Shown here: positions 32,409 through 37,480 of the stretch, piece by piece
Numbering within the stretch: position 1 is the first letter of the stretch
Layout: each line of letters begins with the position of its first letter
From: Candidatus Thorarchaeota archaeon
GTDB lineage: Archaea > Asgardarchaeota > Thorarchaeia > Thorarchaeales > Thorarchaeaceae
NCBI GenBank assembly: GCA_048884965.1
Contig: JBHLQH010000001.1
Coordinates: forward strand, 192,001 to 256,000
DNA length: 64,000 nt
Direction: 5' to 3'
Program-made: the position numbers and the translations under genes
Notes under the pieces: model-generated
What the model saw: the letters and a program-made list of their open reading frames with translations, nothing else
The model's database searches: none
Told to the model about the DNA's origin: nothing

Positions 32409-34457
32409 TCAGACCCCCAGCGAGTACTCTCTGTTCGCATTGAAGACCAAGCTTTTCACAGTAACTGGAAACGCTTCGGTTTCTTTCAATGGTGCTCCAA
32501 TGTCTATCCAATCACCAGCTTTAAGGTCAAGTTCATCGATGACCAGAATGTTCTGTTGAATCGAGGTTTCATCACGAATTGCAAGACCCAACCTCTTTGC
32601 AACATCATATCCGAAGATTAGGATAATCATCTTGCTATTCGATACAGAATTTGGTAGAGCTTTCTCTATAGTCTTAGCAAAAGGTGCCAGCCATTCATCG
32701 CCAGAGTAAAGCCGCGAAAAGATCATCTCTTTGAAGTACAGCGCAACTGTGTCCTGGCCCTCGATCATGTCGAATGTTGTGAATGCTCTCTTGATTTCTC
32801 CCTCGAGTATCTCAGGTGTGAATTCTCTCATACCAAGATTTACAGGCAGAACCGGAACGTTTCCTACTGGGAGTTCAATGTCATCGTCAAAGAATGTGGT
32901 AGATCCGGAAACGGAGAGTGAAAAGGAACCGGCTCCGATTACTGTTGCTCGTATCTTATTCTCTGGCTCAACAATTGTGAGTCCATGTGCTTCTACAAGG
33001 ACTTTGATTTCCTGTGCCAGTATAACTCCGATGTCGTCGAAGTCGCCCTCATTGCCGTAGTACAACTCAGCAATCCCTCCTGAGAAGGAATAGACGTCTA
33101 CTGGTATAGTGAAGTCTAAATTATCTGTCATCATCAGTTCTTTAGCAATGACACTCTTAGCGGGACCAAGCATTGTTTCAACTAGTGCTTTTGCATATTC
33201 TCGAGCAATAGCTCTTGCATCACCTTCAGGAATTATATCTCCAATCTTGTAGTTCATTCCTAGCTCTTTCATAACGAGCTGAGTAGGGCTGTCTATCCTC
33301 CAGATCTTGAAAGATCTGTCAATTCCTAAGAGACGCCCTCCAACGTTTATACAACTTGTACTGAGGACCTTACCGTTGGACACAATCGCCAAGTTACTTG
33401 TCCCTCCTCCAATATCGATATGAAGAATGGTTTTCCTATCGCGGAATGACTGATCAACAATTCCACTCCCCATTGCACTGAGAAGGGACTCCAGATTGGG
33501 GCCTGCTGCAGCACTTACAAATTTTCCCGATTCTGAGGATAGACGGTTTACTATTTCAGCTGCATTCTGTTTCTTTGCGGTTTCACCTGTCACAACCACT
33601 GCGCCAGTTTCAACCATCTCAGGAGTGATTCCAGCTTTCTTGTACTCTTCTTGGCAGAATAGGATCACAGCATCGATATCAATATTGAATCTATCAATCA
33701 GGGGTGTGAAAATGATGTCACTCTCATAGATGATCTCGCGATTAACGAGATTGAAGCGGTTTGTGATATTGAACAAGCTTGTTTCTCTCTTTAGCGTAAG
33801 TTTGGAGAAGATAAGATGCGATGTTGAAGAACCGATATCTATTCCAACACTCAGGAACTTCATATACTCGACATTCTCAGATGGAATATGCATCATCAGC
33901 AGCTCAATCGGTTCAAATGGCTCCTCATTCTCAGCCACTTCCACTTTGTCTTCATCTCTCTTAGAGATCCTGATCTTCATACTCGACCCACAGTGTGCTG
34001 GGACCTCTACCTCTTCTTCTGAATTGAGAATCTCCATCTTCTTCTCACGGGGAACATCTATCACCTGTTCACAGACCGCACAATAGAATTCAAGATCAAT
34101 CGATCTATCGCTCCCGGGCATGACGGGACCTTTCTTAGGAGCGGCTGGTTTTGATTTTCTACGGTGTGCTCCTTCCCACGATGCTTTGACCATGTACTGA
34201 ATCATTGTCATGAGAGTATCAAATTCCTCACAAGGTTGGAGGACCGAAGATAATGCAGGTCTAAATGAAATAATGAGATTTCGCATGCCTTCTACTTCAG
34301 ATTCATCATTCTTCTCTTGATTCTCTACGAGTCTAACATACTCCTTCTCGAAGGCTTCTCCTATTAGTTCTGCATCCTCCGGAAGGTGTTTCTCGAAAAA
34401 GCCTTTGACGACACTAACGATGTGGTTCTTCATATTTTCGACCATGTCTTCAATCAT
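32409..34457 (-). CDS. eutA: EutA-like ASKHA ATPase, paralog 1, with N-terminal helical domain and Zn-ribbon-like insert
   Basis: Same EutA motifs; CAVC...HCG insert. Confidence 0.85.
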   Translation of the reverse strand: MIEDMVENMKNHIVSVVKGFFEKHLPEDAELIGEAFEKEYVRLVENQEKNDESEVEGMRNLIISFRPALSSVLQPCEEFDTLMTMIQYMVKASWEGAHRRKSKPAAPKKGPVMPGSDRSIDLEFYCAVCEQVIDVPREKKMEILNSEEEVEVPAHCGSSMKIRISKRDEDKVEVAENEEPFEPIELLMMHIPSENVEYMKFLSVGIDIGSSTSHLIFSKLTLKRETSLFNITNRFNLVNREIIYESDIIFTPLIDRFNIDIDAVILFCQEEYKKAGITPEMVETGAVVVTGETAKKQNAAEIVNRLSSESGKFVSAAAGPNLESLLSAMGSGIVDQSFRDRKTILHIDIGGGTSNLAIVSNGKVLSTSCINVGGRLLGIDRSFKIWRIDSPTQLVMKELGMNYKIGDIIPEGDARAIAREYAKALVETMLGPAKSVIAKELMMTDNLDFTIPVDVYSFSGGIAELYYGNEGDFDDIGVILAQEIKVLVEAHGLTIVEPENKIRATVIGAGSFSLSVSGSTTFFDDDIELPVGNVPVLPVNLGMREFTPEILEGEIKRAFTTFDMIEGQDTVALYFKEMIFSRLYSGDEWLAPFAKTIEKALPNSVSNSKMIILIFGYDVAKRLGLAIRDETSIQQNILVIDELDLKAGDWIDIGAPLKETEAFPVTVKSLVFNANREYSLGV

Positions 34458-34548: not shown

Positions 34549-35169
34549 ATGACTCAAAAGGACAGGATTCCATTTCTTTCAGTGCCAGCTGAATCAGGGG
34601 AGCAGGTCCAGCAACGGCTCGTAGAACTGAATTTGCTAGACCCACTTAGAAAAATGGAGAGTCGAAGTGGGAAGATATTCTTTCCTTTGGGGAAGGAGAT
34701 AGTCATGAGTAGTGTATTTCCCGAGATGGACACTGGGGACTGGATTATTGGCTTTAAGAGATTTAGACCAGTGGTATCGGAATCTAAAGCGGTCAAGCGG
34801 AAAAAGATACAAGGAAAAAATAGGGGTAGGAGGACTTTGGCGGAACGTGTAGAATCAATCTTTGAGTTCATAGATATGCAACCCGAACCATTTCCAAAAT
34901 CCGAGTTCCAGAAAATTGGTCTCAATCCAACAACTGCTGAAAGCTGGGTTCGCCTTATCGAGTATATCCAGAATCAGCCAATGATCAAAGTCACACAAAT
35001 GGGATCCTCGACATATATCGAACGACTTGAGAATAGATATCTTAGCATGCTTAGAAAGAGAGTTCTTAATCCAAGTCTGTCAATGAAAGAAAGGACCCAA
35101 ACGATGGAAGATTATATCGGTGCACTCATTACTCTCGAGAAAATCGAAGACGGACGAATCAAGAAATAA
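34549..35169 (+). CDS. Hypothetical protein: Trm5-N-like domain plus winged-helix-like domain
   Basis: FLSVPAESGEQVQQRLVELNLLD...KIFFPL resembles the Trm5/Taw2 D1 domain; FPKSEFQKIGLNPTTAESWV is HTH-like. Confidence 0.5.
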   Translation: MTQKDRIPFLSVPAESGEQVQQRLVELNLLDPLRKMESRSGKIFFPLGKEIVMSSVFPEMDTGDWIIGFKRFRPVVSESKAVKRKKIQGKNRGRRTLAERVESIFEFIDMQPEPFPKSEFQKIGLNPTTAESWVRLIEYIQNQPMIKVTQMGSSTYIERLENRYLSMLRKRVLNPSLSMKERTQTMEDYIGALITLEKIEDGRIKK

Positions 35170-35192: not shown

Positions 35193-35849
35193 TTACAGCC
35201 TCAGTAGACGGAAGTCACACTTACCATTACCTTCTGCTATGATTTCTGTTCGTTCGAATCTAATCCACTTGGAGATGGCTTCCATCATCAAGTAATCGTA
35301 TTCGCATAGGATAGGTCCCAATTCTGGATGCTCATTTGCCTTGAAGATATCAAAGTAGAAGCACTTCGTGATGTCGAACCCTAGCTCATTATCATTATCT
35401 GCAACATATTCTAGATCGAAGTATTGATTCTCATAGTTGTTTTGATTTCCTGTCTTTATATACTCAACAATGGTCTTCCAAGTATCTTCACTGGATTCCG
35501 CGTGAGCCCTGAAGCTGTCAATCGTTTGCTGTATCATATCCTGATAGATTGCAAGAACATGCTGTTTGAATTCCTCAAATGAAACTTTTTCCTGTTGAAG
35601 TACCTCATATAATGCAAGTACAAATGTAGGATTTACTCCATGACGTTTTGAAACAAAATCTGGCATCAAGTCTGCATTCTTCGAGAATACTCTATAGAAA
35701 GCATCTTCGAATCGATTTGCACAATTGCCAGCTTTCCAAACACCATAGGTTTTGGTCAGGTGAGAATAGGTTAAAGTTTTGAGATATCCTACCATTTGTT
35801 CTATGAACTCAGCTTCTGACATGATTTTCTGGGCTAGTTTTTTCATCAT
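35193..35849 (-). CDS. ATC-hydrolase-like (V4R/H-NOX-fold) protein
   Basis: FDITKCFY...ELGPILCEYD...RTEIIAEG...CDF. Confidence 0.8.
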   Translation of the reverse strand: MMKKLAQKIMSEAEFIEQMVGYLKTLTYSHLTKTYGVWKAGNCANRFEDAFYRVFSKNADLMPDFVSKRHGVNPTFVLALYEVLQQEKVSFEEFKQHVLAIYQDMIQQTIDSFRAHAESSEDTWKTIVEYIKTGNQNNYENQYFDLEYVADNDNELGFDITKCFYFDIFKANEHPELGPILCEYDYLMMEAISKWIRFERTEIIAEGNGKCDFRLLRL

Positions 35850-35951
35850 ATTAACTCATCTTGTAGTAACGTATTGTGACTCCTTTCTGTGACCCTTTTT
35901 TGTGGCTTCGGTATATATACTAAATCTGGTACCATATACTTGTGAAATATC

Positions 35952-36053
35952 ATGGCTCTAGCAACTAACTACCGAACTGATTTCGTAAAGAAGAACAAAC
36001 AGGTCGTTTCGACCAAGGCTGTAGGTTATGCCTATGCAACTGTTGTGAGGTAA
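35952..36053 (+). CDS. Small peptide 1 (33 aa) MALATNYRTDFVKKNKQVVSTKAVGYAYATVVR
   Basis: Manual translation; TATA-like GTATATATAC about 35 nt upstream; paralogous to peptide 2. Confidence 0.6.
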   Translation: MALATNYRTDFVKKNKQVVSTKAVGYAYATVVR

Positions 36054-36059
36054 TTGGAA

Positions 36060-36149
36060 ATGGCTCTTTCCAAGAACACCTATTCACGAAGCACTACTCG
36101 TCCCAAGATTGTCACTGACGCAATCGCTCATGCTTATCTTAGGAGGTAG
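36060..36149 (+). CDS. Small peptide 2 (29 aa) MALSKNTYSRSTTRPKIVTDAIAHAYLRR
   Basis: Manual translation; GAGGT SD inside the end of peptide 1. Confidence 0.6.
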   Translation: MALSKNTYSRSTTRPKIVTDAIAHAYLRR

Positions 36150-36154
36150 ACCCA

Positions 36155-37480
36155 CTGACCCTCATTACGGCGGAAGAAGCTGAGGTTAGCAAACCTGGCT
36201 TCTCAACTATTCTTCACCGTCCTGACTATCTTCGCCTTTGGCTGGGACAGGTCGTATCAAATGTCGGCACCGCAATAAGCTCACTTGCTCTTCTGTTCTT
36301 TGCCTATTATCTGACTGGTTCTGCCCTTGCAATGGCTATCCTGTCAATCGCACGTGTCGTTCCTGTAGTCCTTTTCTCCGGATTCATTGGCGTCTATGTT
36401 GACCGATGGGATCGAAAGAAGATAATGATAGGTTCTGATCTTCTCCGGACACTCCTCATTCTCCTTATTCCTCTCTCTATCTATTTCCCCCAGAATCTAC
36501 CAACTATCTATTGGGTCTACATTCTAACATTCCTCTACGCCTCTGCTGATGCGTGGTTCTATCCTGCCAGAAATGCCTCGATACCCAATCTTGTTGAAGG
36601 AAAAGAGCTTGTCACCGCGAACTCGTTGTCACAAATGACTTTCCAAGTTGTTCAATTGACGATCCCTCCCTTGGGTGGTGTACTAATTGCACTTCTTGCC
36701 CCCGATTACTTTCTGGCATTTGCGATAAACTCCATTGCCTTTGTCTTGTCAGCAATTTCACTATCTGGTATCAAGACAAATCTAAGACCCCAAAATAGCA
36801 CATCTGAGAAGGAAGCAATGCTCTCCCAGATCTCTGCAGGTGCAAAGGTTGTGATTCAGAATGCAGTTCTCAGTTTCATCTTTGTATTTGCTATTCTGCT
36901 CGCAGTTTCTTCGGGTATTCTCAATGCTCTACTAGTACCTCATTTACAAGGCTATCTTGGGCTTTCTGAAGGGGAGATTGGTCTTCTTATGAGTCTAGGC
37001 GCAGCTTCTGGAATAGTGATAGCTCTTTATCTTGGAAAGAAATCCGACCTGAAGCATCCTCTTGCCATGGTGAACATTGCTGGGATAATTGCTGGTATTG
37101 CTGTTCTTGGTTTCTCTCTTGCTGAAGGATTCGTAGCTGTTGCCCTTTCGTGGACCATCATTGCATCTGTTGATGTGATCCTTAACATCCCCCTAAGTGT
37201 CATAATGCAAAAGCTTGTAGCAGACAAGATGCGTGGAAGAGTATTCTCATTGTTATCAGTGGCTTTCACATCCTTCCAAGTAATCGGAATGGGCATTGGA
37301 GGCATCTGGGCTGAAACGATTGGATCAACCATTCTCCCACTCTTCATATCTGGACTTGCTTTCTTCTTGGTGTCGATAATAGCTGCTCTCTATCTCAAGC
37401 AGTCCCACCTTGGTAGTCGTCTATCAATTATGCTGAGTTCCTCGACCGAAGATCAGTTGGTAGTTGCTAGAACCGATTAG
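36155..37480 (+). CDS. MFS exporter (DHA3/MefA-like), CTG start
   Basis: TM1 YLRLWLGQVVSNVG lies upstream of ATG 36332; AGGAGGT SD 7 nt before CTG 36155; GVYVDRWDRKKIM motif A; MRGRVFS. Confidence 0.85.
   Translation: MTLITAEEAEVSKPGFSTILHRPDYLRLWLGQVVSNVGTAISSLALLFFAYYLTGSALAMAILSIARVVPVVLFSGFIGVYVDRWDRKKIMIGSDLLRTLLILLIPLSIYFPQNLPTIYWVYILTFLYASADAWFYPARNASIPNLVEGKELVTANSLSQMTFQVVQLTIPPLGGVLIALLAPDYFLAFAINSIAFVLSAISLSGIKTNLRPQNSTSEKEAMLSQISAGAKVVIQNAVLSFIFVFAILLAVSSGILNALLVPHLQGYLGLSEGEIGLLMSLGAASGIVIALYLGKKSDLKHPLAMVNIAGIIAGIAVLGFSLAEGFVAVALSWTIIASVDVILNIPLSVIMQKLVADKMRGRVFSLLSVAFTSFQVIGMGIGGIWAETIGSTILPLFISGLAFFLVSIIAALYLKQSHLGSRLSIMLSSSTEDQLVVARTD

Follow-up and report, generated by a model that had tools for sequence, protein, structure and literature searches.

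A family of paired microproteins encoded ahead of an MFS transporter in a Thorarchaeota archaeon

Described systems and the A-B locus

Among known prokaryotes, the Asgard archaea are most closely related to eukaryotes, and to our knowledge almost nothing has been learned of their small proteome or their gene regulation. The locus described here lies in a 64,000-nucleotide stretch of a Candidatus Thorarchaeota genome (GenBank assembly GCA_048884965.1, contig JBHLQH010000001.1, positions 192,001 to 256,000), hereafter the window, in which two short open reading frames (ORFs), A and B, precede a gene for a transporter of the major facilitator superfamily (MFS). Parts of this arrangement recall systems described elsewhere. 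Small-protein modulators are encoded with transporters in the AcrZ-AcrB, KdpF and SgrT-PtsG systems, and aureocin A70 and garvicin KS are multi-peptide leaderless bacteriocins. Among archaea, the 23-amino-acid (aa) sP26 of Methanosarcina mazei binds glutamine synthetase (bioRxiv 10.1101/2020.05.06.080432), and the same organism has yielded MtrR (PMC13370731) and a ribosome profiling (Ribo-seq) catalogue (PMC11456600). The mef(E)/mel genes are controlled by a leader peptide (PMC4335068), and +X+ motifs have been described as macrolide stalling motifs (PMC12583479). Finally, termination-reinitiation needs short gaps between cistrons, and gene pairs with tight spacing code more often for subunits of complexes (PMC6728339, PMC10666635).

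A sequence-only reading of the window had proposed that A and B are paralogous micropeptides translationally coupled to the transporter, in the order TATA box, peptide, peptide, MFS. Both ORFs were found in the sequence where that reading had placed them and with the translations it had given, the order held, and the Shine-Dalgarno (SD) sequence of each following gene indeed lies in the last codons of the ORF before it. The genes and their translation signals are the following.

35952-36053, + strand: ORF A, a 33-aa basic microprotein, A-type family member, stop TAA
36047-36051, + strand: GAGGT, SD sequence for ORF B, overlapping the last codon and stop of ORF A
36060-36149, + strand: ORF B, a 29-aa basic microprotein, B-type family member, stop TAG
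36141-36147, + strand: AGGAGGT, SD sequence for the transporter, overlapping the last two codons and stop of ORF B
36155-37480, + strand: MFS transporter (MFS_1/MFS_3, DHA3-like), 441 aa if the start is CUG 36155

ORF A and ORF B share a frame and are separated by 6 nucleotides (nt). The two junctions in the window read GAGGT-TAA, 6 nt, ATG and then AGGAGG-TAG, 5 nt, CTG, such that the A-B tandem carries the SD sequence of each next cistron in its last codons. Elsewhere, a (G)GAGGT-type element was present at all 29 of the short A-to-B junctions examined, with spacers of 4 to 8 nt, and no junction of either kind had its SD sequence anywhere but within the end of the preceding cistron. The peptides resemble one another at both ends: ORF A reads MAL...STKAVGYAYATVVR and ORF B reads MAL...VTDAIAHAYLRR, with Val in place of Ser. 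Protein identity between the two is 28%, and nucleotide identity is 50% at codon positions 1 and 2 and 31% at position 3, a distribution that, at the sequence level, is that of old coding paralogues. Moreover, in a six-frame translation of the genome, A-type ORFs were matched by a profile of B-type peptides (E = 3e-5 to 2e-4), a cross-match that bears out the proposed paralogy.

A and B belong to a family with conserved ends and a variable middle, summarized as MAL..ST.A[IVL]..AY..R-stop. Members have 26 to 37 codons, start with M-A-[LI] and end with S-T-x-A-[IVL]-x-x-[AS]-Y-x(1-4)-R-stop, and both window ORFs are of this form. A family profile, A1, was built from a 20-sequence alignment and searched against 300 genomes of the phylum. 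It recovered the window ORFs (ORF A, E = 1.4e-14; ORF B, E = 4.4e-12; per genome) at a level that chance would not give, and it had matches in 72 of the 76 genomes of the GTDB family to which the window belongs (16 genera), with up to 15 per genome. No match was found in the 224 genomes of 29 other families of the phylum. The A/B family is therefore, among the genomes searched and as judged by profile matching, restricted to one GTDB family of metagenome-assembled genomes (MAGs) labelled Thorarchaeota. Within the window's own genome, promoter and ORF A recur at the ends of contigs C5 and C29, at the start of C11, at both ends of C40 and in C81, and divergent copies occur in C9, C53 and C32. 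There are at least nine copies in all, five of them with near-identical promoters, and several lie at contig ends, as expected of a repeat. The idea that the pair is a private accessory of this one exporter thus did not survive, as the window holds one copy of a multicopy, lineage-wide family most of whose examined copies stand alone.

The family has largely escaped annotation. Only 42 of 1.84 billion representative proteins match it, nearly all of them 29 to 42 aa long, and standard gene callers mostly miss it. Searches with the peptides of Pfam, NCBIfam, PADLOC and PHROGs returned no family, a PDB sequence search with the family profile returned nothing up to E = 10, family queries of the ESM Atlas gave no usable match, and nothing on this family was found in the literature on small proteins and microproteins of Thorarchaeota and Asgard archaea. 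We conclude that A and B represent a real microprotein family that is, so far as could be found, unpublished.

To evaluate coding, codon usage was compared among 69 distinct family sequences, and proportions of nonsynonymous (pN) and synonymous (pS) differences were computed among orthologues by the Nei-Gojobori method. All four synonymous codons were used at each of the conserved Ser, Thr, Ala and Ala positions (for example, TCA 23, TCT 15, TCG 14 and TCC 13; GCT 31, GCA 20, GCC 11 and GCG 6). The proportions were as follows.

ORF A: pN 0.25, pS 0.44
ORF B: pN 0.34, pS 0.70
MFS gene: pN 0.26, pS 0.75

For ORF B, pN was below pS with values near those of the MFS gene, and its synonymous divergence was as saturated as that of the MFS gene. 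The N terminus of the peptides is conserved besides the C-terminal motif, and the N-terminal M-A-L of B is kept despite varied Ala and Leu codons. In dozens of loci, the stop-to-stop frames exceed the peptides by only 2 to 3 codons. In locus L003, B lies in another frame relative to A and both peptides are retained, and A and B are therefore separate ORFs rather than one read-through product. We conclude from codon-level comparison that ORF A and ORF B are coding genes under purifying selection; synonymous codon variety, pN below pS and the family profile matches all uphold the claim of real coding.

The low pS of ORF A could reflect either gene conversion among copies or an additional constraint at the nucleotide level. 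Across genera, the first 17 nt of the ORF (ATGGCTCTAGCAACTAA) hardly vary, and here the constraint could be leaderless initiation or protein binding, with gene conversion again the alternative. Structured RNA did not account for the conservation: an Rfam scan of 35700-36500 gave matches at chance level only, and the RNA of 35944-36200 folded no more stably than its shuffled versions (-58.9 versus a mean of -61.9 kcal/mol; z = +0.63). Neither analysis revealed, for 35944-36200, an alternative pairing that would mask the downstream SD or start or form a terminator.

Promoter, transporter start and cassette architectures

Upstream of ORF A, three promoter elements were identified.

35866-35906, + strand: operator-like repeat block, with GTAAC 35866-70, TGTGAC 35875-80, TGTGACCC 35888-95 and TGTGGC 35901-06
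35912-35919, + strand: TATA box TATATATA, invariant in the orthologue alignment, its 3′ end 32 nt before the ATG of ORF A
35940-35951, + strand: conserved block TTGTGAAATATC, containing the predicted transcription start and conserved in orthologues and own-genome copies

The operator-like block follows the pattern GTAAC-N5-GTGAC, then TGTGACCC and TGTGGC at 13-nt steps, such that its last three boxes are spaced 13 nt apart. It hardly varies, either before orthologous cassettes (7 genomes, 4 genera) or among the paralogous copies in the own genome. Given the usual archaeal distance from TATA box to start, transcription is predicted to begin near 35942. The 5′ untranslated region would then be about 7 to 10 nt, and ORF A, by its TATA-to-ATG distance, would be near-leaderless. 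The promoter as a whole (TGTGAC repeats, TATATATAC and TTGTGAAAnATC-ATG; 35866-35951) is shared, being near-identical in at least five own-genome copies and 7 orthologous loci. Moreover, the pattern TTGTGAAANATCATGGCTCTAGC, which spans the promoter-ORF junction, was matched exactly in 33 stretches from MAGs that bear the label Candidatus Thorarchaeota or Promethearchaeota (SMTZ1-45 among them), and in none of the viral contigs scanned.

Boxes of the GT[AC]AC-N5-GTGAC(C) type also stand before three own-genome genes that are not part of a cassette (covered by loci L094, L095 and L093).

C2:49035: 424-aa bactofilin-domain protein, operator-like boxes in front
C63:9007, - strand: 485-aa MFS protein, paralogue of the second MFS type, operator-like boxes in front
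C88:227: 693-aa S9 prolyl-oligopeptidase-family protein, operator-like boxes in front

By these boxes, all three are likely members of the cassette regulon. In a second genome, G005, the boxes preceding the S9 gene are conserved as well. We considered the S9 peptidase as a maturase or core partner of the peptides and rejected it, as orthologues occur in only 3 of 41 family genomes.

Next, the orthologous MFS loci were compared. Among 40 relatives, 8 genomes had orthologues of the transporter (59 to 71% identity), and an A-type ORF lay upstream in all 8. A and B were both intact in 6 of these loci, B was missing from one, and one had a frameshifted cassette at a contig end. Failure of the small ORFs to be conserved in frame upstream of orthologues had been named beforehand as the result that would refute the proposal; the opposite was found, with a cassette at 8 of 8 loci. 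None of 11 loci of more distant MFS paralogues had a cassette. An MFS_3-type transporter takes the third slot behind A-B in at least four genera.

The open MFS frame extends from 36143 to 37480 and holds no ATG, GTG or TTG before ATG 36332. CUG is a non-standard start codon in archaea, and CTG 36155, 5 nt past the stop of ORF B, is the sole NTG codon upstream of that ATG. Pfam and TIGR models of MFS proteins begin to match at residues 29 to 32 of the open frame and ATG 36332 is residue 64, and thus a protein begun at the ATG would lack its first transmembrane helix. In 11 orthologous junctions between B and the MFS gene, the start codon lay 4 to 5 nt past the stop of B and was GTG in 5, TTG in 3, ATG in 1 and CTG in 2, the second CTG belonging to another species (genome G005; MFS 70% identical). 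Because orthologues have an NTG at the aligned position and CTG recurs in G005, this start position is conserved, and the CUG is not an artefact of assembly. We also considered a -1 frameshift that would join B to the MFS frame and rejected it, as there is no slippery site and orthologues start canonically at the aligned position. We conclude from these alignments that CUG 36155 is the only plausible start of the transporter and that the start is systematically weak, being non-AUG in 10 of 11 junctions; the weak CUG start put forward earlier is thereby borne out, with no canonical start before the first transmembrane helix and orthologues that mostly use GTG or TTG.

The transporter scored above the Pfam cut-offs for MFS_1 (127.9 bits; cut-off, 33.4) and MFS_3 (74.6 bits; cut-off, 27). 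TIGR00900 (DHA3) covered the whole model at 212.5 bits, under its cut-off of 319.6. By model scores the protein is thus of the MFS_3 type (PF05977), with membership in DHA3 unproven. Mef-type macrolide pumps are its nearest named relatives. It reached 69 to 87 bits with the Mef(A/B/C/En2) models (cut-offs, 675 to 870) and 71 bits with the EntS model (cut-off, 324), scores at which Mef pumps and EntS are distant relatives only.

Most cassettes have no transporter. The commonest layout among the loci examined is a stand-alone mini-operon of promoter, A, B and a third ORF, C, that ends in a hairpin and U-run; at the window locus, the transporter occupies the slot of C. Stand-alone A-B units ending in a hairpin and U-run also occur, and about half of the stand-alone units are not followed by any co-directional gene. 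Elsewhere, the third slot holds an MFS_3-type transporter, a second MFS type or an ECF-S-like membrane protein. C encodes an acidic peptide of 30 to 40 aa that ends EEVL[AML][LW]EAT, and pN/pS in its N-terminal part is 0.4 to 0.6. The codons of its C terminus, with the stop, fold into a strong, conserved hairpin that shows compensatory changes (Ala/Thr codons, for instance, switch together with Met/Ala) and is followed by a U-run (L022:660-730 and 19 other loci). Straddling the stop, the hairpin is terminator-like and would be melted by a terminating ribosome.

In stand-alone cassettes, B and C nearly always share a frame, with one UAG and a 6-nt spacer between them (L022:576-701, L044, L049, L052, L059 and about 45 further loci), and a read-through pattern with one TAG at the B-C junction was seen in 47 of 50 matches in 43 genomes. 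By contrast, A-to-B junctions have TAA or TGA, spacers of 4 to 8 nt and mixed frames. Read-through of UAG from B into C is possible on this pattern. Pyrrolysine as the residue inserted at the in-frame UAG was without support, as PylS was not found in the own genome and PylD was under the cut-off there. Three apparently fused B-C proteins with Q at the stop (P0013, P0014 and P0033) were set aside as probable gene calls made with TAG as Q, since all GTDB genomes have TAG there.

Other loci depart from the common layouts. Cassettes with the second MFS type (L021:240-490, L065 and L092) have two extra conserved small ORFs between B and the transporter, one with KWS[RH]RWSLSPT and the other ending ...SLFYDYHWRL[ED]G. 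In one genus (L007, L041-L043 and L046), A and B are 149 to 256 nt apart and B has its own TGTGAAA-type start block, such that the unit seems split into promoter-A and promoter-B-MFS. A variant first peptide (L060:6250-6360, L081 and L090) is 36 aa long and ends YELLKLEALTYFRR, lacks ST.AI..AY and is followed directly by C. Another variant pair, in L068, L084 and L086, ends ...YYEYMSRR and ...ASARAYMA.

How A and B might act

A and B are hydrophilic and basic, with a median net charge of +5 for A and +6 for B, grand average of hydropathy (GRAVY) values of -0.43 and -0.60, masses of 3.3 to 3.8 kDa and almost no Trp or Cys (Trp per peptide, 0.03 or less). C is acidic (median net charge -2; pI 4.8). 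No hydrophobic segment was seen in A or B, and the membrane "subunit" role once suggested for them is therefore unlikely.

The explanation that we favour, with moderate confidence and from sequence comparison, is that A and B are trans-acting microproteins co-produced with a weakly initiated pump. A strong archaeal promoter, with a TATA box, upstream TGTGAC repeats marking the regulon and a near-leaderless start, would drive a three-cistron operon of A, B and MFS. Ribosomes finishing A would restart at B by way of the SD sequence in A's last codon and a 6-nt gap, and ribosomes finishing B would restart 5 nt on at the MFS gene, where the CUG would be a deliberately weak start. The outcome would be many peptides and few pumps per transcript. 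We infer this ribosome relay through the three cistrons from what is already established about termination-reinitiation (PMC6728339, PMC10666635). A and B would then act as a pair on an acidic or anionic partner, probably peptide C in the stand-alone operons and perhaps the acidic N-terminal tail of the pump, or another cytoplasmic target, at the window locus. The transporter itself would be a co-regulated passenger of the regulon rather than a peptide exporter. Action in trans is consistent with the stand-alone A-B-C and A-B units, with basic A and B set against acidic C, and with the conserved N terminus.

Several observations weigh against trans action. The depressed pS of ORF A (0.44) indicates that part of its conservation is at the nucleotide level. 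The cassette precedes the orthologous MFS gene in 8 of 8 genomes and A-B stands directly before at least three kinds of transporter, both of which a cis-regulatory role would explain equally well. No binding partner of A or B was found. The conserved motif has no significant amphipathic periodicity, whether as helix or strand, and its hydrophobic moment is not above that of shuffles, such that the idea of an amphipathic helix or strand was dropped. AlphaFold2 models of read-through A-B and A-B-C chains had low overall confidence (predicted local distance difference test [pLDDT] 59 and 65; predicted template modelling score [pTM] 0.29 and 0.24), with moderate-confidence helices and no tertiary packing, and so no complex was demonstrated.

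One way to account for the position of the ORFs is that they act in cis as upstream ORFs (uORFs), whose nascent chains or translation rate would sense a drug, a metabolite or translation stress and so gate re-initiation at the weak CUG. We regard such control, akin to that of resistance pumps by bacterial leader peptides, as unlikely though credible. Mef-type pumps are the nearest named relatives of the transporter, and mef(E)/mel is under a leader peptide (PMC4335068). A and B lie directly 5′ of transporters in several independent architectures, the cassette is kept at all 8 orthologous MFS loci, and the MFS start, a codon other than AUG in 10 of 11 junctions, should need translation of the cistrons before it. 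Co-transcription of the short ORFs with the transporter gene may be taken from the lack of any promoter or terminator between the cistrons. In the stand-alone cassettes, the stop of C within a hairpin and U-run could couple translation to termination. However, many cassettes stand alone with no downstream co-directional gene, and A-B-C and A-B units are thus not confined to positions before regulated genes. Moreover, A and B are nearly always paired and their N termini are conserved in amino acids, neither of which an arrest peptide needs, and the leader region offered no alternative RNA structure or masked SD sequence (z = +0.63). Basic residues do stand at the end of the peptide beside the stop, but the terminal Arg codons double as SD sequence and so are no evidence for an arrest motif. 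We know of no archaeal precedent. A ligand-sensing leader function for A and B is possible and not favoured, and its most specific form, in which conserved-peptide uORFs sense a small molecule or stress on the ribosome and gate re-initiation at the CUG of an efflux pump, seems a little more doubtful still. If true, it would be the first described case in Archaea of a transporter controlled by an arrest or leader peptide, and one that extends through an entire Asgard regulon.

It is improbable that A and B serve as leaderless antimicrobial or signalling peptides that are secreted, or give rise to a processed peptide, with the MFS protein as their exporter. Cationic paralogues of about 30 aa, leaderless and encoded in tandem, do resemble multi-peptide leaderless bacteriocins, conserved ends with a variable middle resemble some precursors of ribosomally synthesized and posttranslationally modified peptides (RiPPs), transporters recur as neighbours, and an S9 prolyl-oligopeptidase-family gene has similar operator boxes in the own genome and in G005. 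MFS carriers, however, move small molecules and are not known to move 3.5-kDa peptides. The peptides are hydrophilic, with the GRAVY values given above, almost free of Trp and Cys and without an amphipathic pattern, and they occur in nearly all genomes of the lineage, in several copies, instead of varying between strains. Most cassettes have no adjacent transporter, immunity gene or maturase, the S9 orthologue is found in only 3 of 41 family genomes, and neither the window neighbours nor the distribution of the S9 gene provided an adjacent or co-occurring maturation enzyme of the RiPP kind. Export of intact peptides through the MFS protein, as the earlier reading had offered, is thus unlikely for peptides of this size and hydrophilicity, most of whose cassettes have no transporter.

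That the small ORFs are no genes at all, only a structured 5′ leader RNA or a degenerate remnant of the transporter's N terminus, is very improbable despite the synonymous conservation of ORF A (pS 0.44) and the near-abutting frames of B and MFS, because selection acts on amino acids at the codon level, there is no Rfam match or excess folding energy, the same peptides occur far from any MFS gene, and canonical starts at the aligned position in orthologues put the MFS start after B.

Neighbouring genes and comparison with known systems

The neighbours of the locus are an ATC_hydrolase-like gene, a winged helix-turn-helix (wHTH) gene and an unassigned 219-aa ORF, then a 1,123-aa ORF that looks SMC-like from its sequence.

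34549-35169, + strand: wHTH gene, 206 aa, with a Trm5_N-like N terminus and a C-terminal winged-helix-like domain, single-copy in the genome

An orthologue of the wHTH gene lies immediately upstream of the A-B-MFS cassette in genome G001, and a 40%-identical paralogue lies immediately upstream of the variant cassette in L060, L081 and L090. Twenty other orthologues have no cassette within 1.5 kb, and the wHTH family occurs in 28 of the 76 own-family genomes and has matches in other families also. We considered the wHTH protein as a dedicated or general partner regulator and rejected it, since it is cassette-adjacent only in its own genus and differs in phyletic pattern. Farther upstream, an EutA-family protein (32409-34457, - strand; Pfam EutA, 438 bits) is extended at its N terminus by about 200 residues, among them a Cys-x2-Cys stretch.

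The shared promoter and operator define a regulon, and docking behind a portable promoter-plus-microprotein cassette is a possible route by which genes join it. The locus also provides a well-supported conserved CUG start codon in an archaeon, one that would be fed by translational coupling. If the peptides are modulators or sensors, they would give a handle on the control of stress and transport in an uncultured lineage.

Among known systems, leaderless bacteriocins share with A and B the encoding in tandem of several related cationic peptides, about 30 aa long and lacking a leader sequence. They differ in being hydrophobic or amphiphilic, Trp-rich helices encoded in accessory, strain-variable loci with an exporter and immunity genes. 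A and B are neither hydrophobic nor Trp-rich, have no immunity or ABC-export genes and are not strain-variable, being multicopy and present in nearly every genome of the lineage (72 of 76). The modulators of the AcrZ, KdpF and SgrT type likewise are tiny proteins from the operon or regulon of a membrane transporter. AcrZ and KdpF, however, are single transmembrane helices, whereas A and B are hydrophilic and basic (net charge +5 to +6, with no hydrophobic stretch) and mostly do not lie beside a transporter.

Leader peptides of efflux and resistance genes have in common with this locus a short ORF before a Mef-related MFS pump on one transcript and a weak, upstream-dependent start. Here, the ORFs are instead two paralogues of about 30 codons, conserved in amino acids over their whole length, found in stand-alone operons too and archaeal, and no switchable RNA structure was found in the leader. 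Archaeal termination-reinitiation matches the locus in its co-directional cistrons a few bases apart, with the SD sequence in the end of the upstream gene and pairs that often encode subunits of a complex (PMC6728339, PMC10666635). The gaps of +6 and +5 nt differ from the typical overlaps of -4 or -1, and the last start is CUG. Like A and B, the small proteins of M. mazei are soluble archaeal products shorter than 40 residues that had escaped annotation, with a known or proposed action in trans on a larger partner. The M. mazei proteins have no sequence similarity to A and B and are single-copy genes without a paired paralogue, whereas A and B are multicopy, arranged as an A-B tandem and joined under one shared operator.

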